The notes under the pieces were generated by a model. It ran no database searches and was not told the DNA's origin. It saw only the letters and a program-made list of their open reading frames with translations. The translations under genes and the position numbers were made by a program. From contig JBILYL010000003.1 of the NCBI GenBank assembly GCA_044377775.1, positions 1 through 33,312 of the forward strand: a stretch of DNA of 33,312 nt, read 5' to 3'. This document shows, one piece after another, positions 5,465 through 33,312 of this stretch (the stretch's first letter is position 1; every line of letters starts with the position of its first letter). This stretch comes from Bacteroidia bacterium. GTDB lineage: Bacteria; Bacteroidota; Bacteroidia; 2-12-FULL-35-15.

Positions 5465-8400
5465 TTAGCGCATTAAAAACATTTTACCAAATCCTTTTTT
5501 GAAATATTGATCCGCTCCGCTTTCGCGTTTTTCAATATCCTCACCACGCATAGAAGAAACGACACGGTATAAATAAACACCATTGGCAAGTTGATCTCCA
5601 AATTCGTCTTTTCCATCCCAGGCATAATCAGTAATATTTCGACCGATGTGAAGCGCACCCAATTCATCATTCGTTATTTCACGTATGACCTTACCGGTAA
5701 TCGTTAAAATCTGAATTTTAAAATACGTTGGCACTTCCGAACCTGTAAGTGTAAATACAAAATGTGTTGCCGTTGAAAATGGATTTGGGTAATTCATTAC
5801 TTCTGTTATCGTAGACCGGTTTATTACCTCGAAATTAATTTTATAATCAATTGCTCCCGATTGATTATCCGACTTATCTTTCGCCTGAACGATCAGTTGA
5901 TATTTTCCATCTTCCGTTAAGGTCGGTGTAAGGTTTATTTTACAACTATTATTTGGCAATACAGCAGGAACAAAAGACATCAGAGAACCAAAATAAATTC
6001 TTTGGGCTACCGGTAAAGAAGGAGACTGAATAAACAATTTAAAATCATTTGTATCATTCAATGCTAAAAACTGATTCTCGTCCTTCAGCTGAATTAATAT
6101 GTTTGGTTTGGAGGATACAATATCACTGTTTAAAATATGGACTCCATCGAATGTCACATCTAAGAGCGGATTGATCTTATCAACCGAAACATTGAAAGGA
6201 ATACGAACAATATTATTAAAGTGATACTGTTCCAATTGAATTTTCGGAAGATCCAGCGTATCTGTAGGATGAATTGGATTCACTTCCACCCACAGCGCAT
6301 TTGTTCCGGGATAAGAGTTCGTATTTACATTTATAGTATCCACAATTATTTCTGCAGGAGCAAATAAATTCTTTTTTAGCTTTGAAGGCAAAGGATGATT
6401 GATACGATTGGCATCTTCTATCCAATATGTAACTAAAAGACTATCGCTGAAAGTATATTCACTGATATTCTGAATCGGCAGATGAACAATTATATTATCA
6501 CCCTCATCAACCGTATCTTTTGCATAATAGGCAAGAGCGGGATTAATAGCCGCTTCAGGAACCGGAGTATATATAACCTGCCAGCGCTCCAATTGTGGAG
6601 GAGTATTCAGCGTATCATCTCTCATATACGCAACCAAACGAATATTCGGATAAACAGAAGCATTCGCATACGTACCCAAATTTCCAATATCCAATTGTGA
6701 GGAATTAAAACTTGCAAGCGTATCTTCCGAGCCATCCGGCATGATCCCGATCAGTTGAACAAAGATACTGTCATCAGTAGAAATGCCATCAATATGATGT
6801 TGTTTCCAGGATAGTGAATCCCAGCTGAAAGCCGGACCGATAATAGGAGAAGAAATGGATCCTTCGTTCCAATTACTGATTAATGCAGTATCTAACTGTA
6901 TAAATGAATTTAATGAATCGGCAATTACTTCTGCAGCGGAACCGATTGGATCTCCTTTGGTACCAAACAGAATATATGAACGTTGGGAAGGAACAGTTCT
7001 TATCTGAGAACTCCCTAATGATTCGAAAGCGAGGTAAAGATTTTCTTCATAAGTAGGAATAGAGTGGTAATCTTGGGAATAAGCCAATACATTATAACCG
7101 TTAGGAATATCATTCATAATAAAGTTTGTAATTTTTGCTCTGTTAAGAGAATCCGTATCAAAAAAGTCACAGGCATTTTCCGGAGTTCCTATCGGAGCAT
7201 ATGTATAACTTCCAAATTGAGAAAAACCGCCACCAACGGCAATGGATTTTACACAAATATTACTAACAGGATCAAAAACAGCAATCGTAAATCCGGGAAT
7301 AGCCCAGCTGGAAACATATTCCATGCTTCCATTTATTTTATAATTCACATTGATCCAATTGATATAAGAAGATATTCCATTGTTACATTGCAAACTTTTT
7401 ATATCGTTCACAAAATCAAATTTTCTTAATGGACGGTTGAAGTTCACATATTGATAACGATCATTCTTAAACTGAAAAAAATGAGCTTGCCCCCAGCCAC
7501 GTTTATCGGGGATATATTGAAATGAGCTTTCTCTCCATTTAAAACCGCTTGTTGCACTTGTCGAATCCGGGCTAACTCGCCAGTAATAAACAAGAGTCGG
7601 ATCGAAATTAAATGACGGCTTCCAGGTGATCACACCACCAACAGAACTGATCAACGGTGAACTTTCCATAAACGGACTATCAAATGTGTCAGTCGTATCT
7701 ATTTGAAACACATAATCACGAAGAGGCGCAAACATATCGGCAGTAGATGCCTTAAGTGTAACGGTATCTTTCGGGATTATTGCAAACTCATAAGGATAAA
7801 CAGGAACGATATCTCCTCCACTGATCATAAAAGTGATATCGGTTGTCGCATTATTGGTTTCGTTTAATTCATCAACACGATTAAAATAATCTAAAGTGAT
7901 ACGTACTTTATTTAAACCGATATCTTTAGAAAAGTCCCACGGGATTTTTATTGCGATTGTATCTTTAAATTTGGGGGCGATAGAAAACGACAAATACGTT
8001 TGATTGCTACCATCGGGAAATGTTCTGTAAGCCTGAGTAAAAATACTGTCGTTACTTGCTCTCCCTAAATTTGTTCTTACAACATAAATAACAATTGAAT
8101 CGGGAGCCGGCTTCGTTAAATCAAAAAACACATCACTATTTGTAATTTTATAATCCGGTTTTTTATGCGCATTAATTACTATAGCAGGATCCGCGTGTAA
8201 GGTCATTTCATTACATGTTGCCATCAAAATCGGATCGGAGAGCGCAACTAATTCATTTAACGCAATTACATTCTTGATAGCGCTTCCAACAGATTTCCCG
8301 TAATTTGAAATAGCTGTTTGCTTATAAAATACAGATGAATACATATTTAGTGCGTAGGGAACACCGAGTCCTACAGAGGCCAAATAGCCGATCATCCCTT

Positions 8401-10471
8401 TATTGGGATTGATCACATAATTTTCAGATGTAGTTAATTCAGTTGAATGAATATCACCTGAGTAACAGCCATTGGCAATCATAAAAGGATAATGACCAGG
8501 CAAAGGATTGTATGAAGTAATATCATCGATACTCAAATCAAAACCACTTCCGGAAGCATGCCCAAAAAACGTCATTAACGAAACACCGTTGTCCATAAAT
8601 TCCTGCAATGTATCAGAAGTATTTATGCTGATAGGAGAAGAGCTTGTTTTCAAAAAAGTACTCACCACACCACCAAATAAAGTATCTTCAATGGTCGTTT
8701 CGTAAGCATTGAGATACGTCTTAAAAGCGAGTTGTTCATAAGAAGTGGTACCTCCTCCAAAATGCAACACATTCTTCATCCATTCAGCAGGAGGATTTGT
8801 CACGGTGTTTTCATATTGCTGCACTTTATTTAAATAAGTATCAACATCAACTATTGATTTGGCAGCTAACCGACCAGTTGCAATTGCAGGAACAACCACA
8901 CCACCGGACAAGCCTGCAGTGAATAAATTATCGCTCGAAGGATTTCCGAAAGAAGGAACAAGATCTAAGGCGTAATAAGCAGGATCTGTTCTCAAAAGTG
9001 CCATGTGGTATGATTTTCCGATAAGGAATAAATTTTTGGGAGGAGTAGGAAAGCTATTCAATAAAAACTTACTGAAACCTCTTATGGAAAGCGGACTCTT
9101 GACGATACCGTAAGCAAACTGATCATACAATTGATCAATATCTGCAATTACAACATTATGAAAACCACCAAACATATTTGTACTCCGGTAATTTTTATAA
9201 TCCTGGGCTGCCGTCATTAATGTTTGATGCGTAACAATAATGTAGGCTGAATCAGCTGCCATGAGCGAGTAATCGACAAACTGAGCAGAAGGGCCTACAG
9301 GCTGTAAAGACAAAACAGAAGAAATGAAACCATCTGAAGTAATAAAACATTTTTTATCGGCACCGCTATTTGCAATTAACACGCTATCATTTGAGCCATC
9401 CGTAACAACATTAATCCGCTTGGCATTAGTAAGATCATAAACGCGAACTGCTCCGGAAGCAGTAAAATTAGTAAATGCAAAAAATGATTTTGTCTGACTT
9501 AAATTTTCGGGAACATAAAACAAGTAGTTGCTTTTATTCTCCAGATTCAGTGTATGTGGATATTTTACATTTATATATGACACAGCTGTCCGGTTGGAAG
9601 TAAAACCAGAATTGATACTTGAATATAAGAAATTTGTGAAGGCAGCACCTAAGTTGATTGAAGGAACAGCTTTAACAAATTTGTTTGCTGCATAACCCTT
9701 AAACAAAGTATCAACAAATAAATTGCTGTTGTATTCGATCTTTAATTCGTGATCGGTTAATATAATTGCTGCATCTTTTGATGCACCAACAGCAACCGTT
9801 GTGATTATTGAATTTGGTCCGGCACTATAAACATTGGAGGTGGGCACGCTATAAGAAACAGAACCACCGAGATTAATTACATTGGCATCAAACCACCCTT
9901 CCGCTTTTGTATAACGTGCATCCGTTCCACCAACATTATCCGTTTCACCTTCATAATATCCATTGTGAAAATCAAGTACTTCATCTCTTATAAAATAATC
10001 ATCGGGAACATAAGAACTAAAAGCAATATCTGTTTCCACCTGCATACGATTATTTAAAACAGAGGAATTCCAAGTTAAAAAATAAACTGCGGTATCATTA
10101 ATTAAACTATAAAAGGGGTTTGGAACAAATCCTGTATTCACATATAAAGAAGAGTCGAGGACGCCATCATTTTTCTGCGCATAAAACTCAATAAAATCAG
10201 AACTATTAAAAACGTTATCACTTTCTCCTTCGATGTAAATAAATTGCTGAAGGCCGTTATGAAAAAGCTGGAAATTTTTGGGATTAATTGTACCGAGGGG
10301 AATACCGGCATTTGCAAGAGTGGCCGAATCAATTCGAAACACACCGTTTTGTGCGATTTTTATTTTATAATAATTCTGAGAGTAGTTGATCCATTCATTG
10401 CCATATGTTTGTGCTCTTACCTGTAAAGAGATTAAAACGATCACACATAAGACAAGTAAACGTTTGATCAT
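5465..10471 (-). CDS. PorU-like T9SS sortase / peptidase C25 (gingipain-clan) protein, PorU2 type, 1668 aa
   Basis: Signal peptide VRA|Q, then YYKIKIAQNGVFRI, IEFYA, LYDQFAYG, LFLIGK, PSSDN and ATGRL. The predicted catalytic dyad is FFGHASG (His638) and ANGCYSG (Cys669). It also has a CARDB-like VDELNETNN and a C-terminal YPNPF...WDGKDEFGDQLANGVYLYRV CTD. Confidence 0.85.
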   Translation of the reverse strand: MIKRLLVLCVIVLISLQVRAQTYGNEWINYSQNYYKIKIAQNGVFRIDSATLANAGIPLGTINPKNFQLFHNGLQQFIYIEGESDNVFNSSDFIEFYAQKNDGVLDSSLYVNTGFVPNPFYSLINDTAVYFLTWNSSVLNNRMQVETDIAFSSYVPDDYFIRDEVLDFHNGYYEGETDNVGGTDARYTKAEGWFDANVINLGGSVSYSVPTSNVYSAGPNSIITTVAVGASKDAAIILTDHELKIEYNSNLFVDTLFKGYAANKFVKAVPSINLGAAFTNFLYSSINSGFTSNRTAVSYINVKYPHTLNLENKSNYLFYVPENLSQTKSFFAFTNFTASGAVRVYDLTNAKRINVVTDGSNDSVLIANSGADKKCFITSDGFISSVLSLQPVGPSAQFVDYSLMAADSAYIIVTHQTLMTAAQDYKNYRSTNMFGGFHNVVIADIDQLYDQFAYGIVKSPLSIRGFSKFLLNSFPTPPKNLFLIGKSYHMALLRTDPAYYALDLVPSFGNPSSDNLFTAGLSGGVVVPAIATGRLAAKSIVDVDTYLNKVQQYENTVTNPPAEWMKNVLHFGGGTTSYEQLAFKTYLNAYETTIEDTLFGGVVSTFLKTSSSPISINTSDTLQEFMDNGVSLMTFFGHASGSGFDLSIDDITSYNPLPGHYPFMIANGCYSGDIHSTELTTSENYVINPNKGMIGYLASVGLGVPYALNMYSSVFYKQTAISNYGKSVGSAIKNVIALNELVALSDPILMATCNEMTLHADPAIVINAHKKPDYKITNSDVFFDLTKPAPDSIVIYVVRTNLGRASNDSIFTQAYRTFPDGSNQTYLSFSIAPKFKDTIAIKIPWDFSKDIGLNKVRITLDYFNRVDELNETNNATTDITFMISGGDIVPVYPYEFAIIPKDTVTLKASTADMFAPLRDYVFQIDTTDTFDSPFMESSPLISSVGGVITWKPSFNFDPTLVYYWRVSPDSTSATSGFKWRESSFQYIPDKRGWGQAHFFQFKNDRYQYVNFNRPLRKFDFVNDIKSLQCNNGISSYINWINVNYKINGSMEYVSSWAIPGFTIAVFDPVSNICVKSIAVGGGFSQFGSYTYAPIGTPENACDFFDTDSLNRAKITNFIMNDIPNGYNVLAYSQDYHSIPTYEENLYLAFESLGSSQIRTVPSQRSYILFGTKGDPIGSAAEVIADSLNSFIQLDTALISNWNEGSISSPIIGPAFSWDSLSWKQHHIDGISTDDSIFVQLIGIMPDGSEDTLASFNSSQLDIGNLGTYANASVYPNIRLVAYMRDDTLNTPPQLERWQVIYTPVPEAAINPALAYYAKDTVDEGDNIIVHLPIQNISEYTFSDSLLVTYWIEDANRINHPLPSKLKKNLFAPAEIIVDTINVNTNSYPGTNALWVEVNPIHPTDTLDLPKIQLEQYHFNNIVRIPFNVSVDKINPLLDVTFDGVHILNSDIVSSKPNILIQLKDENQFLALNDTNDFKLFIQSPSLPVAQRIYFGSLMSFVPAVLPNNSCKINLTPTLTEDGKYQLIVQAKDKSDNQSGAIDYKINFEVINRSTITEVMNYPNPFSTATHFVFTLTGSEVPTYFKIQILTITGKVIREITNDELGALHIGRNITDYAWDGKDEFGDQLANGVYLYRVVSSMRGEDIEKRESGADQYFKKGFGKMFLMR

Positions 10472-11547
10472 TTGACTTTTTTGTTGATGTCCACTTTGAT
10501 AGAGAATACATTGGAGTAAAGAGCAACGGATTGATCACCAATATCTGTTAAAGCATAATCGATGTAAACAGATTTGATCTTAACACCGACTCCGATATTC
10601 GGCTGAAATGTTTTTATTTTTTTCCCAAGAGCATCCGTATATGTTTGGTAATTCCCAACTCCTGCACGCAAGAAAATCATATTCATATACGAAGCCTCTA
10701 AACCTAAATGAGGATCTAAACTAACGGCCTTACTTTTTATAAGTACATTTCTTTTTCCGTCAAAAGTAGCATCCACATCCAATTCCGCCAACAAAGAAAC
10801 CTTCTCATTAAAATCGAATTTACGCGCAGCGCCCAATAATAATTTTGGTAAGGTGATCTCAACCGAGTTTTCAGGAATTTCATTTCCTGTAGCCAAAAAC
10901 ACTTGTTTGGTTTCCTCTGATAAATTAAAACTCCAGGCATTAAAAGTAGACGTTACATCACGTGCCATCACAGCAAATTTCCATTTTTTATAATCGTACT
11001 GCGCACCGGCATCCAGGCCAAAACCCCACGCACCGGCAAAATCACCCACTTTCCTGCGGATGATCTTCACATTTGCTCCCAAGCGCAATCCGGGGATCTT
11101 CAGTTGTTTTGCATACGAAACCAAAAAGGCATAATCAACGGCAGAAAAAGTTGTGATCCTGTTGTAATCAACATTCCCGTTTGCATCAATCAATTCGGTT
11201 GTATTGGGAATATCATCAACACCAAAACGAATTAAACTTAAGCCCAAGACACTCGATGAATCAAGGCGTGTAGCAAATGCTCCGTAATCATATTTGGCAA
11301 TACCGGCAAAATATTCGCTGTGCATCAAGGCAACCTGATGCTGGTTTTTGATACCCAACAAACCAGCCGGATTCCAATACCCTGCAGTAACATCGTTTAC
11401 AGAAGTAATGTATGAATTTGACATACCCAAGGCTCTTGCCCCAACACCAATATTCAGAAACTCATTACTGTATTTAGGAGCCTGAGCAACAACCGTTGAA
11501 AAAAAACATAAAAAAGCGACTGTAGCAGCGGAAAATTTCTTATTCAT
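10468..11547 (-). CDS. PorV-family (FadL-like beta-barrel) T9SS shuttle protein, PorV2 type
   Basis: Signal peptide VVA|Q, FLNIGVGARALGM, AGYWNPAGL, GFGLDAG and amphipathic beta strands. It overlaps the PorU-like gene by ATGA. Confidence 0.85.
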   Translation of the reverse strand: MNKKFSAATVAFLCFFSTVVAQAPKYSNEFLNIGVGARALGMSNSYITSVNDVTAGYWNPAGLLGIKNQHQVALMHSEYFAGIAKYDYGAFATRLDSSSVLGLSLIRFGVDDIPNTTELIDANGNVDYNRITTFSAVDYAFLVSYAKQLKIPGLRLGANVKIIRRKVGDFAGAWGFGLDAGAQYDYKKWKFAVMARDVTSTFNAWSFNLSEETKQVFLATGNEIPENSVEITLPKLLLGAARKFDFNEKVSLLAELDVDATFDGKRNVLIKSKAVSLDPHLGLEASYMNMIFLRAGVGNYQTYTDALGKKIKTFQPNIGVGVKIKSVYIDYALTDIGDQSVALYSNVFSIKVDINKKVK

Positions 11548-21820: not shown

Positions 21821-24073
21821 ATGCAAAAACAATTCAAGTTTTACGTTTTAGCGACAATATCCCTACTATTATTGATTGGAGCATATTGGAACCATTTCGA
21901 TAACGAATTTCAGTTTGATGATGCCCATACGATCGTAAACAACAATGCGATCCGGAGCATAAAAAACATCCCTTCATTTTACACGGACGCCCGCACTACC
22001 AGCTCATTGCCGGCAAATCAGATTTACCGTCCAGGACTTACTACATTAAATGCCATTGATTATTGGATTGGCGGAAATACTGAACCTCAGCCACGTATCT
22101 TTCACATTTCTATTTTCATCAGTTATTTGTTTTTAGGCATTCTGCTCTATTTTTTATTTCTGAAATTGTTTAACGAAACGACCGACCACAAATGGAACAA
22201 ATATTTTGCCCTCTTTGGAGCCTCCTTCTATAGTTTACATGCTGCAAATGCCGAAACGGTGAATTACATTATCGCCCGCTCGGATTCCTTTTCAACATTA
22301 ATGATCGTTCTATCGCTGGTCATCTTCCTATACAAACCAAACTGGAGAAAAAAATGCATCTATCTCCTACCCGTTACGATCGGCTTCTTTGTAAAAGAAC
22401 CCACAATAATGGTTGCTCCACTTTTACTGATATATCTTTTGTTGTATGTAAAAGAACTATCCATTATAAAGTGGTTCTCCATCAATGGAATTAAAGAAGG
22501 CATATCTGCTGCAATTTCTTTACTCCCTTTATTTATTCTGGTAGTACTTTTATTTCTTCTTTCTAAATCGATGGCCTCGGATACGTTTATTCCCGGTGCC
22601 GGTTCAGGCTATGAGTATATTTTAGCACAGCCTTTTGTGATCATACATTATTTCAACAACTTCCTGTTGCCACTTAATCTATCAGCTGATACAGATTGGC
22701 TCCCTATCGCTCGATTTTACGATGACAGGGTTATTGCAGGAACATTATTTATTATTGCAATGATTGCTGCAGCAGTATATTGTTCTCGAAAAAAAAAACT
22801 GTTACCTATCGCCTTTGGAATTTCATGGTTTCTATTAGCATTACTACCAACATCCATCATGCCTTTGTCTGAAGTATTAAACGACCACCGTACATTTTTT
22901 CCATATATCGGATTAGTGATTGCATCAGCTTGGTCTTTAGGCCTAATCGCAATTAAGTTGCAGGCAAAAATTGAAGCACATTTTATCTATAAATCAGTAT
23001 TTATAATTCTACCACTGCTAATACTTTGTGGTCATGCTTATGGAACTCGACAAAGAAATAAAGTTTGGAGTACCGGTGAAACTCTTTGGGCAGATGCTGT
23101 TCAGAAAAGTCCGAATAATGGACGTGCACTAATGAATTACGGTCTTGCAAAAATGAAAAAACAAGACTACCCGGCAGCACTTGATTGTTTTGAACGCGCT
23201 TTAAAAATACTTCCCAACTACTCCTATCTCTTCATAAATATGGGGGTTTTAAAAAGCAGTATGGGAAATGCTGCTGAAGCAGAAACAAATTTCAAACAAG
23301 CATTATTTTTGAATCCTGGAAATCCGGAAAGCTATTACTTTTATTCCAACTGGCTTCGTTCACAAGGCAGGTTTAAAGAAGCATTTGACTTAGCAGAAAA
23401 AGGATTAAAAATCAGTCCGGATCACAGCGGCAACAAAACACTTTTTTCTGAATTATCAACTTTGGCTGCAAGTGAAAAGGACCAGTTACAGATTGCTGAA
23501 CAAACAGCAAAAGAAAAACCGAGTGTCGACAGCTATATTGCATTGAGCTTACTGTATTACCAAAAACAGCAATATGAAAAATGTATAGAAGCAGCGAATG
23601 AAGCAATAAAAATAAAACCGGATTGTATAGAAGCATACAATAATATTTGTTCGGCACAAAATATTATAGGCAATTACGATGAAGCAATTTTAGCGGGGCA
23701 GCAAGCATTAAAAATTGATCCTGAGTATGAGTTAGCAAAAAACAACTTAGCGGATGGTATAGCAAGAAAAGAAAAGGTACATCCGGTTTTAGCACTTATA
23801 AAAAAGGATCCATCAGAAGCAAACTATATCAATTTGAGTTTAGTTTATTATAATTTAGGCAGTTTTCAGAAATGTGCTGATGCTGCAGAACTTGCAATAA
23901 AAGCGAATCCAAATTCTGATGCAGCATACAACAACATCTGTTCAGCATATAATATGCTTAAACTTTGGGACAAAGCCATTATTGCAGGAGAGAAAGGATT
24001 GACCATTAATCCAAACAATCAGCTTTTAAAAAACAATTTAGAAGTTTCAAGAAGAGGAAAGGCCGGTAATTAA
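21821..24073 (+). CDS. TMTC-like membrane glycosyltransferase (GT-C membrane domain plus C-terminal TPRs)
   Basis: NEFQFDDAHTI (acidic DD pair after TM1), YRPG, LH...ETVNYIIARS, KE, P.NLSAD, DHRTFFP and RN.VW.....LW.DAV.KSP...R, followed by multiple TPRs. Confidence 0.8.
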   Translation: MQKQFKFYVLATISLLLLIGAYWNHFDNEFQFDDAHTIVNNNAIRSIKNIPSFYTDARTTSSLPANQIYRPGLTTLNAIDYWIGGNTEPQPRIFHISIFISYLFLGILLYFLFLKLFNETTDHKWNKYFALFGASFYSLHAANAETVNYIIARSDSFSTLMIVLSLVIFLYKPNWRKKCIYLLPVTIGFFVKEPTIMVAPLLLIYLLLYVKELSIIKWFSINGIKEGISAAISLLPLFILVVLLFLLSKSMASDTFIPGAGSGYEYILAQPFVIIHYFNNFLLPLNLSADTDWLPIARFYDDRVIAGTLFIIAMIAAAVYCSRKKKLLPIAFGISWFLLALLPTSIMPLSEVLNDHRTFFPYIGLVIASAWSLGLIAIKLQAKIEAHFIYKSVFIILPLLILCGHAYGTRQRNKVWSTGETLWADAVQKSPNNGRALMNYGLAKMKKQDYPAALDCFERALKILPNYSYLFINMGVLKSSMGNAAEAETNFKQALFLNPGNPESYYFYSNWLRSQGRFKEAFDLAEKGLKISPDHSGNKTLFSELSTLAASEKDQLQIAEQTAKEKPSVDSYIALSLLYYQKQQYEKCIEAANEAIKIKPDCIEAYNNICSAQNIIGNYDEAILAGQQALKIDPEYELAKNNLADGIARKEKVHPVLALIKKDPSEANYINLSLVYYNLGSFQKCADAAELAIKANPNSDAAYNNICSAYNMLKLWDKAIIAGEKGLTINPNNQLLKNNLEVSRRGKAGN
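23513..24050 (+). repeat. Internal tandem duplication of a TPR module (period 291 nt, 97 aa)
   Basis: PS..sYI.LSL.YY.....KC..AA..AIK..P....AYNNICSA.N....D.AI.AG...L.I.P...L.KNNL occurs twice. GCATACAAyAAyATyTGTTCrGCA is found at 23633 and 23924. Confidence 0.85.
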
Positions 24074-24873
24074 TTTTTCTTGCGGATCACAATAATGTGA
24101 TGAAGTGCAAAAACAGAATTAAAAGGCATAAAAATAAATTCTAAAAATTTAATGACAGGTGAAAAGAAAGAGGGAAGAATCTGCCTGAAATTCAGTCCAC
24201 CGGATAACACATAGCGCATATAATTATTTAGCGGTTTCTGAACTACAATTTCTAAATTGGGATATCGTTCTTCAAATTTTTTCTTGTCACGGATAAAAAC
24301 AATATATGAAAGCGCCTGATTTGCTCCATTCATAAAACCAAGAGATTCATTGACCCAATCTTTTTGAGTCATATCAAATGTTTCGGTGTCAAATATTTTT
24401 TTGTAGAACCGTTTTGCAATCGTTCCGTAATATGGATCTATCAAAACACATCCACATCCTTTTACCAAAACACGATCCAGTTCATTAAAAAACAGATCAG
24501 GATTCGGAAAATGATGAAAGCAATTAATACCATAAATTGCGCGAACACAGTTTTGCTCGAATGGCATATTTTGAGCATCAACAACCATATCCAGATTCTC
24601 TGCTTTTTTTATATCGGTAGAAATGATCTCAGGATATTTTTTTTTAAAGAAACTAACCCCTGCACCTATTTCAACACGTTTAGCTTTAGAATCAGAAAAG
24701 TATTTTTCATCCAACCGGATACATTCATCATAAAACTCAGAGAACACTTCACGCATCATTGGTTTTTCATACAACACTTTGCTGTGAATTTCCAACATCT
24801 TCTCACTATCAGGATCAACTCCGATCAAGCGGGGCTCTTGCAGCCACGTTCTTAACTTTTTAAATAAACTCAT
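24070..24873 (-). CDS. Class I SAM-dependent methyltransferase
   Basis: VEIGAGVS, ISTDI, VDAQNMPF, CFHHF and RVL..G....LIDP. Confidence 0.85.
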   Translation of the reverse strand: MSLFKKLRTWLQEPRLIGVDPDSEKMLEIHSKVLYEKPMMREVFSEFYDECIRLDEKYFSDSKAKRVEIGAGVSFFKKKYPEIISTDIKKAENLDMVVDAQNMPFEQNCVRAIYGINCFHHFPNPDLFFNELDRVLVKGCGCVLIDPYYGTIAKRFYKKIFDTETFDMTQKDWVNESLGFMNGANQALSYIVFIRDKKKFEERYPNLEIVVQKPLNNYMRYVLSGGLNFRQILPSFFSPVIKFLEFIFMPFNSVFALHHIIVIRKKN

Positions 24874-24890
24874 ATTGAACAGATTCTTTT

Positions 24891-25733
24891 TTAATATGCA
24901 TCAAAATCAAAGGCATTAAAACTGACATTCTTAATATCCAATCTCCTGTTTTTATTTGAGAGATCCTTAAAAATAAAATTCAAAGGAGAAGGACGTAAAT
25001 TTTTCGGAACAGAAAAATACAATGAACGACTCCAATTGATTGACTGATCGATACCAATAAATAATTTAATGGGACGAAATCCAATAGTGACTTTATTATC
25101 GGGTAAGGGTGAAACAAGCGAAATATCAAGCAAGATTGCTTCAACGCCAGGTTTATCCGTTGCCGAATAAATAATATTCTTTACTATTTTATAGTTGTTT
25201 GCAGGGTTAGACAATCGCCATACCAGAGATTGATTGTTCCAAATCCTGACAAAACAAGCATCTGAATCGATATCAGAATGAACAATTTTTCCAAAACCAA
25301 TTTTTGCTTCCAATTTGCCGACCCACTGAAAACCTAACTTATTGACAAATCCATGAGTGCTGTTCGCATTCGCAACCCCAATTACAAATCCATATCCTTT
25401 TTCAGTAGCTGCATTATAACTAAGTTCAGCAAGCGATGTAAATAATTTATTCCCCTGATGATCGGGATGAGTAGCGGTATTTAAGGAAAGTAATCCTTTT
25501 TCATCTACACCAAACAACAATGCAGTAAAAGGGATCAATGCATAATGAGCCGCCAGCACGCCATTTTTATAGGCATTAAATCCGACAACACTTCCTTCAG
25601 GATTATTTTTATATTGCCACTTAATAAACGCTTCAGAATACTTATCTGCCATTGGAAAAACAAGACGCAATAAGTCTGCAATTTCTTTAATTGCTTTATC
25701 ATCAGTACCAACAGGTGAAAATTCGTAACTCAT
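24891..25733 (-). CDS. GNAT family N-acyltransferase
   Basis: WQYKNNPEG, acyl-CoA motif A (TATHPDHQGNKLF) and GVANANS.HGF. Confidence 0.85.
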   Translation of the reverse strand: MSYEFSPVGTDDKAIKEIADLLRLVFPMADKYSEAFIKWQYKNNPEGSVVGFNAYKNGVLAAHYALIPFTALLFGVDEKGLLSLNTATHPDHQGNKLFTSLAELSYNAATEKGYGFVIGVANANSTHGFVNKLGFQWVGKLEAKIGFGKIVHSDIDSDACFVRIWNNQSLVWRLSNPANNYKIVKNIIYSATDKPGVEAILLDISLVSPLPDNKVTIGFRPIKLFIGIDQSINWSRSLYFSVPKNLRPSPLNFIFKDLSNKNRRLDIKNVSFNAFDFDAY

Positions 25734-26596
25734 TATTTCAAAACCGATTGTAAGCTTTCACGATAATTCAGGATATTGACCTCTAATTTTTCCAAGTCAA
25801 CCTTTGTTTCAAATTTAAGCAAATGTTTCAAGCCAAGAACACTTTCAGAAGAAACCCGGAGATGCAGCCCCATAAACTCTGCCGTTTTACAAATAAAAAA
25901 CAATAGCGGCAAAGGAAAATAAATGAACCGAAGCTTTTTATTCAGCTGCTGTGCGATCTCCTGATAAAAAAGTTTCATAGTTATCGCTTCAGGTTCTGCA
26001 ATATAAAATAAGCCGTGAATATTTCTTTCAAACGCCAACTCAATGATCAGACACAGATCATCAATATGAATAGTTTGTATTGACTGCATACCACCACCGA
26101 TCAAAGGAAAAAAGGAAGTATTTCTTATCGTTTTTATCAATTCTGCCGCAAGTCCTTTTTTACCGATCACGAAACCCGGTTTCAAAACAACATCTGTTGC
26201 TAAGTCAAACAAATGCTCACACTCCAGTTTTGTTTTACCATAATGTGACTCTGCAAGTTTATGAGCAGAAAAAGAAGAAAGAAATAGTGGTGTAATATTT
26301 TTTTTACGACAGATTGCTATAAGTTTTTTTGTACCGGAAATGTTTATTGCATCGGCATCGTTATTTTCGTCAAATCGTAAATATGCGCAGTGCACTAAAT
26401 AATCAACCGATTCGAATGCATTTTCATCGAGTTGTGTTTCAAGACTATATTCAACATATTCAACATCCCTCACTATTTCTTTGGGGATGTTCCGCACAAA
26501 TGCTTTCACATTCCAACCATTCACAAAAAAATAATGAACCAGATGCTCTCCGATAAATCCATTCGCTCCCGTGATTATAATTGTAGGCTTAATCAT
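25733..26596 (-). CDS. NAD-dependent epimerase/dehydratase (extended/atypical SDR)
   Basis: ITGANGFIG, LVHCA, FLSS, YGKTK (YxxxK) and IHIDDL. Confidence 0.88.
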   Translation of the reverse strand: MIKPTIIITGANGFIGEHLVHYFFVNGWNVKAFVRNIPKEIVRDVEYVEYSLETQLDENAFESVDYLVHCAYLRFDENNDADAINISGTKKLIAICRKKNITPLFLSSFSAHKLAESHYGKTKLECEHLFDLATDVVLKPGFVIGKKGLAAELIKTIRNTSFFPLIGGGMQSIQTIHIDDLCLIIELAFERNIHGLFYIAEPEAITMKLFYQEIAQQLNKKLRFIYFPLPLLFFICKTAEFMGLHLRVSSESVLGLKHLLKFETKVDLEKLEVNILNYRESLQSVLK

Positions 26597-28205
26597 TTTT
26601 TAAAACATTTTTTGCAACGTTATATGCATTAGCCATCAATGTAAATGTTAATCCTTTTGCCGGCAAATAATTAAATCCGGAACCATCAGCTACAAACACA
26701 TTTTTCGTTCCGGCCAATTTCCCATTCGGGTAAATTGTATATTCATCGCCCCGATCATTGAAGGGCAATGTTCCCGCATAATGAATACTACCGCCATGGG
26801 GAGTATGAACTGTTTTTAATGGCTGACATCCTAAAGCTCTGAGAGCACTTTTAATTTTCTGTTCACGCAAACTATTTGTACTTATTTCCTGATCCGATAA
26901 AATATATTGTCCGGTTAAAACATCTCCTGTATAAGCGTCAGCATGCTTTTTCATGCGGATGAATTTAGTAGCAGAACCTTTTTCAGGATGATGAATTCCT
27001 GCAATAGTAAAAGAAGATTGCAAATATTGCATGATGATACGGGCATCCGCAAAATTCAATGGCGTTTCTTTAATAAGTTTAAACAACAATAAAGAACGAT
27101 AGCTAAACAGTGCAGCCATTCCTACATCATAATTGTTTTTATTCTCATCGAGGTACAAAACCAATTGCCCTAAACTGGTTTTCTTTTGCTCTGTCTCTTT
27201 CCCTAACATGCGCCATTGAATACAAGGAATATAGCAATATGGATTACAAATTACAGGCAATTGTTCTTTTTTATAATCAAAAGAGCGCATCACGATTCTT
27301 GCTGTACCAAGTACTCCAGGAGATAAAATTAGTTTTTTGCAACTGAAAATTTGTTCCTCATTTGTATCTGTTCTTTTAACAATTACATCTATGCCATTTT
27401 CATGTTCACGAAATTTCAGAACCAGGCAATTTTTATGATAAACAAAATTTGTTTTTTTATTCAACTGCTCAATCGTCATCCAGGAGCGGTATGCAGATTG
27501 ATCTTTGTCCGACCAAAAATCCATGTCCTTGTAATCTACAGCAGAGCGATTATCCTTATCCTTTGTAAGCAAAGCCAATGCAGACCTCCCAAGAAAAACA
27601 CCTTTTTTATTCAAGGATTTTTTTTGATTGTTGTAAGAAGAGTAAACTCCAGATAAATTTTGTTCCAAGTCCGAAACAGGCATTATATTTTGGAGATCAC
27701 CTAAACAGTATGGGGCACCATCATCCCTCGTTCCGGAAACACCAATATGAGATGCAACTGCTTCATAGGCCTTTTTCATTTCAGCTTCACGGAGCCCGAT
27801 TGCCTGCAATTCCGGATTCGAAAACACATAACACCCTAAGCCCCAACCACCACCCAATCCACCCTTCGCCATACTTTCCATCGGCTTAAAAGAATCCGAT
27901 TCAAAGGGAATCAATTTATCGGTTAGTTGCGTTAAAAAATTTCTGGGAGGCGTAAGCTGAGATCCTACTTTAGTTGATTCCCATGGAATACCTTCGTAAT
28001 TATTTCCCAAAAAATAGCGATGCTGATCGGATTCTTCTTTGCGAATAGAAATAAAATCTTTAGCCGGAATAATTTGCTTATACGTTTCATCCTCAACACC
28101 AACATCCAGAAGAGCGACAACAACACCTTCTTCAACGAGTGAATGCGCAGCAATTGCACCTGTAGCTCCTGAGCCAACAACAATGTAATCGTAGTTTAAT
28201 TGCAT
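26589..28205 (-). CDS. GMC-family flavin oxidoreductase
   Basis: DYIVVGSGATG FAD motif, GGLGGGWG, C-terminal SIHYAGTLP, VADGS and P....TFTLMANA. No signal peptide. Confidence 0.82.
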   Translation of the reverse strand: MQLNYDYIVVGSGATGAIAAHSLVEEGVVVALLDVGVEDETYKQIIPAKDFISIRKEESDQHRYFLGNNYEGIPWESTKVGSQLTPPRNFLTQLTDKLIPFESDSFKPMESMAKGGLGGGWGLGCYVFSNPELQAIGLREAEMKKAYEAVASHIGVSGTRDDGAPYCLGDLQNIMPVSDLEQNLSGVYSSYNNQKKSLNKKGVFLGRSALALLTKDKDNRSAVDYKDMDFWSDKDQSAYRSWMTIEQLNKKTNFVYHKNCLVLKFREHENGIDVIVKRTDTNEEQIFSCKKLILSPGVLGTARIVMRSFDYKKEQLPVICNPYCYIPCIQWRMLGKETEQKKTSLGQLVLYLDENKNNYDVGMAALFSYRSLLLFKLIKETPLNFADARIIMQYLQSSFTIAGIHHPEKGSATKFIRMKKHADAYTGDVLTGQYILSDQEISTNSLREQKIKSALRALGCQPLKTVHTPHGGSIHYAGTLPFNDRGDEYTIYPNGKLAGTKNVFVADGSGFNYLPAKGLTFTLMANAYNVAKNVLKND

Positions 28206-28606
28206 TTTCGTTTGATGGTATTAACAATAAATATTCCAACCAATGCTCTCATAATAGCACGAACTCCTACAAGACCTATTTTAAACAAATAGACGATCGA
28301 ATATTTTCGTGAAAGAAAGTAAGAAGTATAATTTGGGGATGCTTCTAATATAGCCAGCATTGTAAACAGTTTTCTACGAACAGCGCTGGTTGGTTCTTGA
28401 ACTGCCAATGCAGCATCGATGCAGGCCATGTGCCATTTATTTTTAAGCATCTTATTCCAAAGCAATTGCTCATATTCCGAAAATGAAATATTTAATTTCA
28501 GCATCGCATCGGCATATTTTTTTTTTTCAGTTTCCTGAATTGAACTATTTAGGAGATACAGGCCGATCTGTTCTGCTTCAAAAATATGATTGCTATTTGT
28601 TTCCAT
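28196..28606 (-). CDS. Hypothetical protein (136 aa), translationally coupled to its neighbours
   Basis: The ORF overlaps both the deacetylase stop and the GMC start. It contains IDAALA...RRKL.TMLAILEASP.Y and an amphipathic/hydrophobic C-terminus. The start is set at METNS (28606). Confidence 0.75.
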   Translation of the reverse strand: METNSNHIFEAEQIGLYLLNSSIQETEKKKYADAMLKLNISFSEYEQLLWNKMLKNKWHMACIDAALAVQEPTSAVRRKLFTMLAILEASPNYTSYFLSRKYSIVYLFKIGLVGVRAIMRALVGIFIVNTIKRKCN

Positions 28607-29438
28607 TAAACGCGGATGCATATTCTCTATAAGTAATAATTTTACAATCGAATGTATTCATAATATCTTCTAATCGTTCAAACATATTTTTACGATTAAA
28701 ATACATGAGTCGGTTATAAAACCAACTGTTATTTATTCCAGGATGCATAAAAGACTCTTGCTCTGTATCAATATCATAAGGATGAAAATAACTTGTAACA
28801 GCTAATCCTTTAGAAAAATGTTCCAAGAATCCTTTTTTAATAAGCGGCATAGGTAAAACTCTAAAATATACTCCTCCGGAAAAAGGAACATTCAAAAAAC
28901 GGCTACCTCTCACACTAACAGGAATTTCCAACAGTTTATCGCTGACTTTTCTAGGACTTTCTCCAAATGCTTCCCATCCGAACAATGGATTTTTTGCCGG
29001 AAGAACAGAGCTGGAATAGGTAAAACCTAATTCTGTCAGTATATCAAATGCCCAATCAGTTTTTTCTGTAACAGAAAATATTGGTGCACGGTATCCAACA
29101 ATATCAGTTGCACCGGCCTTGGATAAATTTTCAAGATTTTGCAAAAGATCCTTTTTAAAAAGTTCTTTCGTCTGAGATGAAACCGGGATATGTTTATCTG
29201 AATGACAAGCGATTTCGTGTCCTTCGGAAATGATAGATCTGATCAAAGAAGGGTATTGCTCAGGAATATCGCCAACTGTAAAAAAAGTTGCTTTGGATTT
29301 ATGTTTGTCCAGAAAGCGAAGATATTGTTCTGTCAGTTCCTCCACACGTGGTTTGAAATGTAAACCATCAGACATCCGCAAACGGACATCCTCAAGATCG
29401 ATGCTGAACAAAAATGTATTTTTCGTTGGCTTCGCCAT
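28593..29438 (-). CDS. CE4/NodB polysaccharide deacetylase (PEP-CTERM-locus/DUF3473-like subfamily)
   Basis: FSIDLED, KATFFTVG, GHEIACHSDKH, GYRAPIFS, YSSS, GGVYFRVLP and YFHPYDID.EQ. No signal peptide. Confidence 0.9.
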   Translation of the reverse strand: MAKPTKNTFLFSIDLEDVRLRMSDGLHFKPRVEELTEQYLRFLDKHKSKATFFTVGDIPEQYPSLIRSIISEGHEIACHSDKHIPVSSQTKELFKKDLLQNLENLSKAGATDIVGYRAPIFSVTEKTDWAFDILTELGFTYSSSVLPAKNPLFGWEAFGESPRKVSDKLLEIPVSVRGSRFLNVPFSGGVYFRVLPMPLIKKGFLEHFSKGLAVTSYFHPYDIDTEQESFMHPGINNSWFYNRLMYFNRKNMFERLEDIMNTFDCKIITYREYASAFNGNK

Positions 29439-29519
29439 TCTAGTGTGAAGTAATTTTTGTTATTTTGCTTTAATTTAGCGACAAATTACGAAAAAACCAG
29501 CACAAAAAAACAATAATAA

Positions 29520-30203
29520 ATGATAATCATTACCGGAATCACAGGAGGAATTGGAAATTTTTTATTCAATAAATTTTCACAATCCGGGGAACAACTTATT
29601 GGCACTTATCATTTGAATAAACCGGAAGGAAAACAATATGACAATTGCGTGCAATTGGATATTACAAATTATTCACAGGTAGAACAATTTATTTCTTCGA
29701 TCCGGTCAACAGCCAAAGAAATAACACTTATTAACTGTGCGGGAATAAGCGCAAATGCTTTTGCTCACAAATCAGATATTGACGAATGGAAGAATGTGAT
29801 CAATGTAAATCTAACGGGCACTTTTCATTTGATTCGGGCAACATTGCCATTAATGCGCGAACAGCAATTTGGCCGCATCATTAATTTATCCTCCATTGTC
29901 TCACAAACCGGTGTAATGGGCACCAGCGCATATGCAGCTTCCAAAGCAGGAATTAACGGAATGATAAAAAGTATTGCCCTTGAAAATGCACAAAAGGGAA
30001 TAACAATTAATAATATCAATCTGGGCTATTTTAAAGTTGGAATGATCGATACTGTCCCGAAAGAAATTCAGGATATAATCAAATCTAAAATAGCATCCAA
30101 TGAATTTGGAGAACCTGAGAATATCCATTCCACAATTCAATACATACGTAATACATCTTACCTGAATGGAGCATGCTTAGATCTGAATGGAGGATTGGTA
30201 TAG
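29520..30203 (+). CDS. Classical SDR, FabG/acetoacetyl-CoA-reductase-like
   Basis: ITGITGGIG, LINCAGI, VNLTG, GRIINLSS, YAASK and LGYF. Confidence 0.88.
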   Translation: MIIITGITGGIGNFLFNKFSQSGEQLIGTYHLNKPEGKQYDNCVQLDITNYSQVEQFISSIRSTAKEITLINCAGISANAFAHKSDIDEWKNVINVNLTGTFHLIRATLPLMREQQFGRIINLSSIVSQTGVMGTSAYAASKAGINGMIKSIALENAQKGITINNINLGYFKVGMIDTVPKEIQDIIKSKIASNEFGEPENIHSTIQYIRNTSYLNGACLDLNGGLV

Positions 30204-30211
30204 CAATTATA

Positions 30212-30229
30212 TAGGAAGTCTAGGAAGTC
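30212..30229. repeat. Perfect 9-bp tandem direct repeat (TAGGAAGTC x2)
   Basis: Read directly from the sequence, 8 nt after the SDR stop. Confidence 0.8.
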
Positions 30230-30250: not shown

Positions 30251-30286
30251 AACAAAAAAGCAGCTTTAAAGCTGCTTTTTTTTGTT
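30251..30286 (+). terminator. Intrinsic terminator after the SDR gene (could work on both strands)
   Basis: AACAAAAAAGCAGC-TTTAAA-GCTGCTTTTTTTTGTT stem followed by a T8 tract. Confidence 0.88.
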
Positions 30287-30697: not shown

Positions 30698-31240
30698 ATG
30701 TACGGCATTGTAAACAAAGCAATTCAGGGTCTGGTAACAGAAAATTACGGACATGAATCCTGGGAAGAAATAAAAAAAAGAAGCGGTGTTTCTGTCGAAG
30801 CATTTCTGAGTAACGAACCCTATGCTGATAAGACAACATTTGACCTGGCATTTGCCACTTCAGAATATTTAAAAATTGACTTGAAGGATGTACTTATCTC
30901 TTTCGGGGAATATTGGGTCCTAAAGACAGGACAAGAGAGTTATGGATCACTGATGAAAGCCGGGGGAGATAATCTGAAGGAATTCCTGATAAACCTTCCG
31001 AACTTTCACAGCAGGGTGATGCTGATTTACCCCAACCTTACGCCACCAGAATTTAAAATTTCTAACATTGAAAACGCTGCTCTGCATGTTCATTATTTTT
31101 CAATGAGAAACGGTCTTCAATACTTCATGTTCGGGTTACTTCAGGGCTTGGGAAAAATGTACAAAATACCAACAGAGATATCCATAATTGAATCTAAATC
31201 GGATGGTGCAGACCATGATGTATTTTGTGTAAAATGGTAA
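30698..31240 (+). CDS. Stand-alone H-NOX (heme NO-binding) protein, sGC-beta/Nostoc type
   Basis: MYGIVNKAI N-terminus, FGEYW, proximal His104 (NLPNFH), YPNLTPPEF and the YxSxR motif (Y133-S135-R137). Confidence 0.95.
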   Translation: MYGIVNKAIQGLVTENYGHESWEEIKKRSGVSVEAFLSNEPYADKTTFDLAFATSEYLKIDLKDVLISFGEYWVLKTGQESYGSLMKAGGDNLKEFLINLPNFHSRVMLIYPNLTPPEFKISNIENAALHVHYFSMRNGLQYFMFGLLQGLGKMYKIPTEISIIESKSDGADHDVFCVKW

Positions 31241-31244
31241 TTGA

Positions 31245-33312
31245 TTGAATAAAAACGATAACATATCCTTTGATCACGATAAAATAGAAATCATATTTCC
31301 ATTCTATTTTGTATTCGATAAGTCATTAAAAATAATCTCATCCGGGAAAAGTCTGAGTAAGATATTTCCTAATGTTATTAATTCTAATTTCGAAGAGTCA
31401 TTTTTATTTAAAAGACCCTTTAGTATTTCTTACTCCATTACTTCTATTAGTGAATATACAAATCAGATCATAATCCTTGCTTCAAAAAAAAATCCTGAAA
31501 TAATATTAAGAGGACAAATACTGAACTTAGAAAATGAGAAGCTGATCTTTATCGGAAGCCCATGGCTGACCTCACCCGAAGATCTTTCCAAACTGAACCT
31601 CAACATTCCAGACTTTGCAATTCATGATGCAACTACTGACATGTTACAACTTCTAAAAAACAAGGAAATAATGTCCATAGATATTCTTTCACTTGTTGAA
31701 AGTCTTAAAGAACAAAAAAGTGAATTAAAAATTTCTGAAGACGAATTAAAATATAGCAACAACAGATTTTCTGTTCTTATTCAAAACATGCAAAGCGGAA
31801 TACTTTTAGAGAGCACTGAAAGAAAGGTAATTCTGACGAATAAGATCTTTTGTGAATTCTTTCATATTCCGGCACAACCTGAACAACTGATTGGATACGA
31901 TTGCATAACAGCTGCAAGAGATTCAAAAACATTGTTTACTGATTCTGAGCATTTTATTGATAGAATTGATGAAATACTGACTGAGAAAAAACTAGTGCAA
32001 AATGAAGAACTTCACATGATGGATGGTACTTTTCTTGAGCGTGATTTTGTACCCATATTCTCCGAAAATCAATATCATGGACATTTATGGATCTATAGAA
32101 ATATAACAGAGAGAAAGAAAAATGAACATGAACTTATATATGCTACAGAACAAGCGATTATAAGCAAAAAAACCAAGGAACAGTTTCTTGCGAATATGAG
32201 TCATGAATTGCGAAACCCAATTAACATAATTACTGGCGTAACGGGTTTAATATTCGACACGGATCTTTCAGAAAAGCAAAATGAATATTTAGGGATTATT
32301 AAAACTGCTTCCGAGAACCTATTGGCATTGGTGAATGATATATTGGATTTTGAAAAAATTCAAGCAAAAAAAATAAAATTTCATAATGCCCCATTTGACC
32401 TCCGAAAATGCATTAACGAAGTGTATTTGTCTATGAAGTTTATTGCAGCAAACAAAAACATTTCTCTTACAGTTGAAATTGATGATTTCCAACCAACACA
32501 TTATGTTTCGGGGGATTCACTTCGTCTCAAGCAAATTTTATTTAACCTCATCAACAATGCCATAAAATTCACCGAGAGAGGAGCGGTAAAATTGTCGGTA
32601 ACCCTTGAAGAAACGAGTGGAAAACAAAAACGAATAAAATTTAAAGTTCAGGATACAGGCATCGGCATCTCAAATGAAGATCTAAAAACGATTTTTGACC
32701 GGTATGTTCAGGTAATAAGCCCGTCCAGCAACCAACCCAAAGGAAGCGGGCTAGGACTGACTATTGTAAAAAATCTTGTTGAGCTTCAAAATGGAACAAT
32801 TGAAGTAAAAAGCACAATCAATGTTGGATCAACATTCAGTGTTACCATTCCTTATCAGATTATAGAACACTTGAATACAAAACAGAAAGAAAAGAAAATT
32901 GAATCATTTGACCTTTCAGGTAAAAACATTCTTATTGTTGAAGATGATAAAATAAATCAGATGATCATCACAAAAATGCTTGAAAAACATGGAGCAACTT
33001 CTGAAACAGCGGATAATGGCAAGATAGCCTTGGAAAAATTAAATATAAACAGATATCACATTATTTTATTAGACTTACAAATGCCTGTTATGGATGGCTA
33101 CACAACAGCGGAACAAATAAGGAAATCAAAAAATTCAAACCATTCAACCATTCCAATTATTGCTATTACCGCAAATATATTGTCCGGAGAAAAAGAAAAA
33201 TGTATGGAGGCCGGGATGAACGACTACTTGAGCAAACCTTTCATGGAAATAGATTTAATCAAAAAAGTAAATGAACTTAGCAATCGCTCCACTTATGAAG
33301 AAACGAATTTAG
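31245..33312 (+). CDS. Hybrid sensor histidine kinase HNOBA(H-NOXA)-PAS-HisKA-HATPase-REC, 3'-truncated; absent from the ORF track
   Basis: Manual translation from the TTG at 31245 stays open to the window end (689 codons). HNOBA motifs: IFPFYFVFDKSL, KRP, LRGQ, IGSPW, HDATTD. The PAS ends RNITERK. H-box FLANMSHELRNP (His codon 32202), then NLINNAIKFT, DTGIG and GSGLGL. REC motifs: ILIVEDD, LLDLQMPVMDG (Asp codon 33072), ITAN, SKPF. Confidence 0.93.
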   Translation, partial: MNKNDNISFDHDKIEIIFPFYFVFDKSLKIISSGKSLSKIFPNVINSNFEESFLFKRPFSISYSITSISEYTNQIIILASKKNPEIILRGQILNLENEKLIFIGSPWLTSPEDLSKLNLNIPDFAIHDATTDMLQLLKNKEIMSIDILSLVESLKEQKSELKISEDELKYSNNRFSVLIQNMQSGILLESTERKVILTNKIFCEFFHIPAQPEQLIGYDCITAARDSKTLFTDSEHFIDRIDEILTEKKLVQNEELHMMDGTFLERDFVPIFSENQYHGHLWIYRNITERKKNEHELIYATEQAIISKKTKEQFLANMSHELRNPINIITGVTGLIFDTDLSEKQNEYLGIIKTASENLLALVNDILDFEKIQAKKIKFHNAPFDLRKCINEVYLSMKFIAANKNISLTVEIDDFQPTHYVSGDSLRLKQILFNLINNAIKFTERGAVKLSVTLEETSGKQKRIKFKVQDTGIGISNEDLKTIFDRYVQVISPSSNQPKGSGLGLTIVKNLVELQNGTIEVKSTINVGSTFSVTIPYQIIEHLNTKQKEKKIESFDLSGKNILIVEDDKINQMIITKMLEKHGATSETADNGKIALEKLNINRYHIILLDLQMPVMDGYTTAEQIRKSKNSNHSTIPIIAITANILSGEKEKCMEAGMNDYLSKPFMEIDLIKKVNELSNRSTYEETNL

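Follow-up and report, generated by a model that had tools for sequence, protein, structure and literature searches.

The window, which is the entire contig C179 (33,312 bases, GC 35.7%) of the Bacteroidota genome G000 (2.88 Mb in 412 contigs, 94% complete), ends with two genes on the same strand. The first, hnoX, codes for a haem sensor of the H-NOX family and the second for a hybrid histidine kinase with an HNOBA domain at its N-terminus. The kinase gene runs over the contig end onto a second contig, C404, where a third gene follows. The sequence predicts a three-gene operon of hnoX, an HNOBA-PAS hybrid kinase with receiver (REC) and Hpt domains, and a REC-LytTR transcription factor. The features of hnoX and of the kinase within the window are as follows.

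30698–31240, + strand: hnoX, ATG start, 180 amino acids (aa), stand-alone H-NOX haem sensor
31245–33312, + strand: hybrid histidine kinase, the part in the window, TTG start, residues 1–689 of 802, open at the 3′ end
31275–31790, + strand: HNOBA (H-NOXA) region, residues 11–182, a PAS-like core (strands 21–106) plus the start of a signalling helix
31629–31784, + strand: long continuous helix, residues 129–180, from an AlphaFold model, a linker of the signalling-helix or coiled-coil type
31797–32102, + strand: second PAS domain, residues 185–286, five-strand PAS topology in the AlphaFold model
32175–32366, + strand: HisKA (DHp) domain, residues 311–374, 69 bits, phospho-acceptor His320 in SHELRNP (codon 32202–32204)
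32511–32858, + strand: HATPase_c domain, residues 423–538, 95.6 bits, N box at about 434–442, G1 box DTGIG at 470, G2 box GSGLGL at 500
32928–33269, + strand: receiver domain (Response_reg), residues 562–675, 96.9 bits, acceptor Asp610 in LLDLQMP (codon 33072–33074)

Gene boundaries and continuation past the contig end

The stop codon of hnoX (TAA, 31238–31240) is followed by a 4-nt spacer (31241–31244), and the kinase opens with the TTG at 31245 in a different frame. An in-frame TGA (31242–31244) lies immediately 5′ of this TTG; therefore, the kinase frame has no start further upstream. The first internal methionine is residue 133. Because this residue lies within the HNOBA domain, a start at or very near 31245 is required. 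At the equivalent position of the alignment, related loci have either ATG (L014, L016, L017 and L019) or TTG (L012, L013 and L015). The junction of the two genes was recovered with 0 differences in metagenome contigs from other samples (X6 record 6, 30789–32446; X9 record 21). Since these independent contigs have the identical junction, the gene split is not an assembly error. The kinase was absent from the list of open reading frames (ORFs) that accompanied the sequence, most likely because its frame runs off the contig end.

The window and a second contig of G000, C404, share an end overlap of 29 bases, with C404 in reverse-complement orientation. On the reverse strand of C404, the kinase frame continues for another 113 residues to a stop codon, which gives a protein of 802 aa. 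The continuation contains an Hpt domain (Pfam, 43.2 bits) with an HKLKGS motif. The kinase stop overlaps the start of the next gene as ATGA. This 229-aa ORF has a Response_reg domain (74.8 bits) and a LytTR domain (53.7 bits) and codes for a LytTR-type response regulator. The join of C179 and C404 is confirmed by an identical protein, a syntenic locus and metagenome contigs. A public database protein of 802 aa is identical over window residues 2–689 and over 122/122 residues of the C404 piece. Locus L012, 92% identical and on a 94-kb contig, has the order deacetylase, SDR, H-NOX, 802-aa kinase, LytTR regulator, DUF2304 and family-2 glycosyltransferase (GT2). A 57,986-base metagenome contig (run X2) spans the stretch and extends past the window end; it is a possible source of this DNA and hence not independent.

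The N-terminus of the kinase was identified as HNOBA (Pfam PF07701) with 82.8 bits against a cut-off of 23.4. The match comes in two stretches, 31275–31493 and 31485–31790, corresponding to profile positions 5–78 and 109–207, and covers the PAS-like core. The motifs FPFYF (18), RP (57–58), LRGQ (88), GSPW (104) and HDATTD (127) align with the PAS domain of the Nostoc punctiforme kinase and with the beta1 subunit of soluble guanylate cyclase (sGC). Among solved structures, the N-terminus was closest by sequence to 2P04/2P08 (E 1.8e-10), followed by the PAS regions of sGC beta1 and alpha1. By fold, sGC beta1 chains took ranks 1–4, and the model superimposed with 2p08_B (TMt 0.76, root-mean-square deviation (rmsd) 1.3 Å over 94 columns) and 2p04_A (TMt 0.83). 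The AlphaFold model comprised kinase residues 1–315, was based on an alignment of 16 sequences and reached a mean pLDDT of 85.3. Besides the helix and the second PAS domain listed above, it has a helix leading from the second PAS into the DHp domain. The second PAS remained below Pfam thresholds in the kinase itself (PAS_7 with 20.7 bits vs 27; PAS_4, PAS_8 and PAS likewise) and exceeded the threshold in the homologue L015 (PAS_8, 29.2 bits).

The domains of a hybrid kinase, HisKA, HATPase_c, REC and Hpt, are all four present, and the phospho-acceptors stand in the usual motifs: His320 in HisKA, Asp610 in REC, His741 in Hpt and Asp53 in the regulator. No transmembrane segment was detected in the kinase, for which the highest 19-residue Kyte-Doolittle mean was at most 1.18; the protein is predicted to be soluble. 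No specific NCBIfam model matched either ORF, and similarities to generic hybrid kinases were below their cut-offs.

The hnoX product matches HNOB (PF07700) over profile positions 1–162 of 163 with 147.1 bits (E 5.8e-43, cut-off 25.5). Its closest solved structure is Alr2278 of Nostoc sp. PCC 7120, over the full length (E 7.8e-47). The sGC beta1 structures followed with E values from 1e-29 to 1e-23 (human and Manduca; human 1e-29), then the proteins of Shewanella, Vibrio and Caulobacter with 2e-6 to 1e-5. The O2-binding domain of Thermoanaerobacter matched only in part, over residues 75–165 (E 2.7e-4). By these similarities, the protein is assigned to the Nostoc/sGC subtype and not to the proteobacterial HnoX class. 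In H-NOX proteins, a histidine is the proximal haem ligand and a Y-x-S-x-R motif binds the haem propionates. His104, Tyr133, Ser135 and Arg137 align with His105, Tyr134, Ser136 and Arg138 of Alr2278. In 18 H-NOX proteins encoded beside HNOBA genes, His104, Pro112, Tyr133 and Arg137 are invariant and Ser135 is nearly invariant. Phe143 takes the position of Nostoc Met144, and a distal tyrosine is absent. The protein contains one cysteine and therefore lacks the three-cysteine zinc site of the proteobacterial redox switch.

Much of this had been described in an earlier note made from the letters of the DNA: an H-NOX gene, a 4-nt gap and a TTG-started kinase, with the HNOBA motifs FPF, RP, LRGQ, GSP and HDAT.D, a coiled-coil-like helix, PAS, HisKA, HATPase and REC domains, and no transmembrane segments. 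The two ORFs, the Pfam matches, the AlphaFold model and the hydropathy values bear it out in each of these points. The profile search which the note had proposed returned both HNOB and HNOBA above their cut-offs. The Hpt domain and the response regulator, for which it had suggested reading past the window, were found on C404.

Known relatives and distribution of the gene pair

The pair resembles a cyanobacterial one. Both consist of a stand-alone H-NOX of the sGC type (Alr2278, PDB 2O09/4IAH) and a soluble kinase with an N-terminal HNOBA PAS domain (N. punctiforme, PDB 2P04/2P08); the two genes are neighbours with a common orientation, an arrangement also present in cyanobacterial locus L024. 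An adjacent, same-strand H-NOX gene and an HNOBA domain at the N-terminus of a soluble kinase, the features of a Nostoc-type pair, are both present. Differences are the affiliation with Bacteroidota and, on this locus, a hybrid kinase with REC and Hpt domains followed by a LytTR regulator. Iyer et al. 2003 and Ma et al. 2008, both cited in PMC2828450, are reportedly the founding papers of the Nostoc H-NOX/H-NOXA-kinase type.

With animal sGC (beta1/alpha1; PDB 6JT0, 6PAS and 9OXN), the locus shares the order of modules, H-NOX, HNOBA PAS and long helix, and the motifs FPF..FD..L, RP, L(R/K)GQ and HDAT.D. Unlike in sGC, the H-NOX is a separate protein, and a second PAS domain and a histidine-kinase phosphorelay take the place of the cyclase. 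No cyclase family was among the Pfam matches of hnoX, the kinase or the LytTR regulator. Because a cyclase domain is missing and the H-NOX is encoded by a separate gene, the locus is not a member of the sGC family.

To our knowledge, the HnoK-type kinases of proteobacteria have no HNOBA domain. The proteobacterial systems H-NOX/HnoK, HqsK and HahK of Shewanella, Vibrio and Caulobacter also combine a stand-alone H-NOX with a soluble, sometimes hybrid, kinase. Their H-NOX proteins are distant from the one described here, which is without their zinc/cysteine site. According to the accessible excerpts of PMC12329717 and PMC8738867, H-NOX with bound nitric oxide (NO) controls kinase autophosphorylation in these proteobacterial systems.

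The earlier note had compared the locus with Nostoc and sGC, and the closest solved structures agree: Alr2278 for the H-NOX, 2P04/2P08 and sGC for the kinase N-terminus. It knew of no characterised example from Bacteroidota, and likewise no such H-NOX/HNOBA-kinase pair was found in the literature searched, which did not cover subscription journals and in which one may have been missed. The accessible part of PMC9510103 lists Bacteroidetes/Bacteroidota among the phyla with H-NOX; in that of PMC8738867, Flavobacterium appears in a reference title only. The note had also called the sensor split. This is apt relative to animal sGC and does not hold within bacteria. The first 165 residues of the kinase were compared with 1.84 billion representative proteins. 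Relatives numbered 1782 at E<=0.001, falling to 888 at 1e-10 and to 23 at 1e-30. For every one of the best 150 of the 1782, the HNOBA match begins no later than residue 16 of the protein. Because of this start, none of these 150 can bear an N-terminal H-NOX, and separate genes for H-NOX and HNOBA are the bacterial norm. As weak further evidence, a search for longer proteins with a fused H-NOX gave no match at E<=1e-10.

Genome G000 has exactly one HNOB gene and one HNOBA gene. In 41 related genomes including G000, HNOBA was detected in 18 and HNOB in 13; HNOBA was present in 10 of the 24 other genomes of the genus. The two genes are adjacent in 8 of the 13 genomes with an H-NOX (G000, G009, G012, G018, G019, G021 with three occurrences, G022 and G028). 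HNOB genes with lower scores and without HNOBA occur in G004, G013, G017 and G025. A sample of 301 genomes evenly distributed over the phylum, including G000, gave 16 HNOBA matches at E<=1e-6. Seven of these, all in another class, cover only the coiled-coil end (profile positions 164–215). The PAS type of HNOBA was found in 9/301 genomes, all in the class of the window.

A search of species-representative genomes with two conserved peptide patterns yielded 22 HNOBA loci. Half of them (11/22) were labelled Bacteroidota: Chitinophagaceae, Terrimonas pollutisoli, Cyclobacteriaceae, Flavobacteriales, Saprospiraceae and others. The labels of the remaining loci were Deltaproteobacteria, Byssovorax, Acidobacteria, Herpetosiphonaceae, Leptolyngbyaceae, Phycisphaerae, Jatrophihabitantaceae, Burkholderiaceae, Verrucomicrobia, Gemmatimonadaceae and one 'uncultured bacterium'. 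The 22 loci come from about ten phyla; HNOB was adjacent in 14 of them and not adjacent in 6. Two were not assessed for adjacency: in L027 the scanned ORF was not the matching one, and L030 offered only 283 bases upstream. A LytTR regulator 3′ of the kinase is confined to the four closest loci, L012–L015. The outputs joined to HNOBA vary from a kinase alone to kinase-REC, kinase-REC-Hpt, STAS and MCP. The STAS case is a Herpetosiphonaceae metagenome-assembled genome (MAG; L023) with HNOBA joined to PAS-STAS and an adjacent H-NOX; in the uncultured bacterium (L033), HNOBA is joined to HAMP-MCP. A Deltaproteobacteria MAG (L021) has a REC-GAF-GGDEF-EAL gene 3′ of the kinase. In a Chitinophagaceae MAG (L019, 3995–6769), an HNOBA-PAS-HisKA-HATPase-REC-Hpt kinase is broken into four consecutive ORFs; the break is probably not genuine and stems from frameshifts in a long-read assembly.

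Phylogenetic trees were calculated for 18 H-NOX proteins and for the 18 HNOBA proteins paired with them. The 11 Bacteroidota sequences grouped with one Verrucomicrobia MAG in both trees, with support values of 98/98 for H-NOX and 79/70 for HNOBA. The nesting was also the same: the window with L012, then L014, then L015. Such matching trees would fit an inheritance of the pair as a unit. DNA of the window was detected in lake and freshwater metagenomes in 20 rows from 16 studies, 5 of which may be its source.

Proposed phosphorelay and its alternatives

The gene content suggests that the operon probably encodes a cytoplasmic, NO-responsive phosphorelay of four steps, leading from the HNOBA-PAS hybrid kinase to the LytTR transcription factor. 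The ligand, the binding between H-NOX and kinase and the sign of the regulation we infer by analogy. The ferrous haem, held by His104 and the Y-x-S-x-R motif, would bind NO (and CO, carbon monoxide) and not O2, like the Nostoc H-NOX and sGC. The H-NOX may dock on the dimer of HNOBA PAS domains and on the helix, as the modules pack in sGC, and its ligand-dependent conformation would be read there. The 52-residue helix and the second PAS domain would then relay the signal to the DHp domain, with a change in autophosphorylation at His320 as the result. From His320, the phosphoryl group is predicted to pass to Asp610 (REC), His741 (Hpt) and Asp53 of the LytTR regulator, altering transcription. NO activates sGC. 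In all H-NOX/kinase systems studied earlier, NO-bound H-NOX inhibits the kinase, the Caulobacter protein being the exception, as stated in the accessible part of PMC12329717.

A source of NO was sought in the genome of G000. Neither an NO synthase (PF02898) nor a cytochrome cd1 nitrite reductase (PF02239) was matched in this 94% complete genome. For copper nitrite reductase, the sole match (TIGR02376) had 33 bits against a cut-off of 296. As no source was detected in the genome, the sensed NO is probably exogenous, from other organisms or from lake chemistry.

Several observations weigh against an NO-responsive relay, and some of them lend themselves to other explanations. No experimentally studied HNOBA kinase was found in the same literature, again outside subscription journals. 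An alignment of the region 5′ of hnoX with three relatives and a repeat search revealed no conserved direct-repeat motif as a candidate LytTR site, the sole features being the palindrome at 30254–30281 and the tandem at 30212–30229 described below. The accessible excerpts of PMC12329717 describe that the Fe(II)-NO form of the Caulobacter H-NOX can be inactive towards its kinase and that this H-NOX is under oxidation-driven control; the reference list includes the title 'Is Nostoc H-NOX a NO sensor or redox switch?'. The nearest solved relative, the Nostoc H-NOX, has PDB entries in several ligand states. This would suit an operon that senses CO or, via oxidants, the redox state of the haem, with H-NOX as a redox/CO switch on the kinase. 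Such a switch is unlikely here. The residues of the haem pocket are of the NO-sensing sGC/Nostoc type, and the oxidative switch of proteobacteria needs a zinc site of three cysteines and one histidine or glutamine, again according to the accessible part of PMC12329717. With its single cysteine, this H-NOX does not have that route available. The protein shares its Pfam family with the O2-sensing H-NOX domains found in obligate anaerobes, but a role as O2 sensor is very unlikely given the weak and partial likeness to the Thermoanaerobacter domain and the phenylalanine, not tyrosine, at the Nostoc Met144 position. That position 143 corresponds to the O2-binding tyrosine of the Thermoanaerobacter H-NOX is, however, our assumption, and this too counts against the NO reading.

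The kinase could also act alone via its two PAS domains, with an H-NOX that has another target or is merely co-transcribed. Four of the 41 related genomes (G006, G008, G034 and G035) encode HNOBA kinases and no HNOB gene, and 6 of the 22 loci have no adjacent H-NOX. The kinase of L013 (4001–6418, on G009:C69), 71% identical over residues 1–190, is not preceded by an hnoX. An adjacent H-NOX is thus not strictly needed by the HNOBA domain, a further point against the proposed relay. Upstream of the L013 kinase lies a Por_Secre_tail gene on the opposite strand, and a LytTR regulator follows it. Elsewhere in that genome (G009:C6:24882–26115), an H-NOX is encoded next to another HNOBA protein, which is more divergent. 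Either one H-NOX serves two kinases in this genome or the L013 kinase lost its sensor. We regard a kinase acting alone as quite unlikely in view of the 4-nt gap on one strand, the adjacency in most of the loci across phyla, the single H-NOX and single HNOBA in the genome and the agreement of the two gene trees. Moreover, both domains form one regulatory unit in sGC, and sGC structures are among the leading matches. The short distance, the different frames and the fusion of the domains in animals might indicate a broken, once-fused sGC-like gene, caused by a frameshift, a nonsense artefact or decay to a pseudogene. The probability of this is practically negligible: other samples yielded contigs with the identical junction, the genes are separate even in relatives with as little as 27% identity, and HNOBA is N-terminal in the best 150 relatives. 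The lack of fused proteins adds little weight.

The H-NOX/HNOBA-kinase pair has been known since the work on Nostoc and is widespread; neither its components nor their arrangement nor the probable logic is new, and the locus would not surprise a specialist. The locus adds to this type a Bacteroidota lake lineage, a PAS-hybrid kinase with Hpt, and a LytTR output. As a soluble bacterial version of the sensor and docking modules of sGC in two proteins, the pair could be a simple system for signalling from H-NOX to PAS and helix. It could also help to ask how freshwater bacteria that do not denitrify respond to the NO of others. A wider proposal is tentative and, in our estimate, possible though rather unlikely. 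In it, H-NOX and N-terminal HNOBA would form a two-gene 'sGC regulatory cassette' that is portable; bacteria of about ten phyla would retain its two proteins unfused and combine them with interchangeable outputs (kinase, STAS, MCP or GGDEF-EAL regulator). In this lake lineage, with its small genome and no NO source of its own detected, the cassette would read the NO of neighbours such as algae, cyanobacteria or denitrifiers. Its targets, switched via LytTR, would be a short membrane peptide, a small YolD-like protein and neighbouring genes for cell-surface polysaccharides. NO would then be an inter-species cue for surface or attachment behaviour, and the pair a minimal two-protein model of how, in sGC, the PAS and helix modules receive the signal of H-NOX.

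Neighbouring genes and other features

Two features lie between the upstream genes and hnoX or border this region.

29520–30203: SDR gene upstream of hnoX
30254–30281, no strand: perfect palindrome of 14+14 nt, an inverted repeat with 100% complementarity and runs of A and T at its flanks

The palindrome is kept in L012. It looks like a (bidirectional) terminator, which would make hnoX the first gene of its own transcription unit. Directly past the stop codon of the SDR gene, at 30212–30229, lies the exact tandem TAGGAAGTC TAGGAAGTC. It has no counterpart in L012, where the alignment has a gap.

The genes flanking the operon are of the surface-polysaccharide type and are given as context. Upstream, at 24073–30203 of the window, they comprise a polysaccharide deacetylase with DUF3473, a GMC-oxidoreductase-like gene, an epimerase, a GNAT gene, a methyltransferase and the SDR. 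Downstream, at 6836–8990 of L034 (the locus on C404), DUF2304, GT2 and a SIS-CBS (KpsF-like) isomerase are encoded. The downstream pair of DUF2304 and GT2 is also present in L012 and L014, and DUF2304 in L013.

Two small ORFs lie directly 3′ of the LytTR regulator in the same orientation, at 9392–9514 (−) and 9043–9333 (−) of L034. Counterparts are present in L014 (7223–7345 and 7406–7696) and L015 (7212–7328 and 7334–7627); L012 and L013, which are closer, have none. The first codes for a 40-aa peptide with a single transmembrane segment (Kyte-Doolittle mean 2.36). The 96-aa product of the second had no Pfam family and no Foldseek match to the PDB at E<=0.001. It fell into Atlas clusters of Bacteroidota named 'hypothetical' with a possible YolD-like fold, and its model, of mediocre quality (pLDDT 65), has a helix and a small beta-barrel. 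Both proteins are possible targets or accessories of the pathway.

Further away in the window, a 1668-aa protein of the gingipain family (Peptidase_C25) is encoded at 5465–11547, beside a weak PorV-like gene, and an ORF with Por_Secre_tail is located at 3–536. Peptidase_C25 and Por_Secre_tail mark cargo of type IX secretion, which fits the assignment to Bacteroidota.

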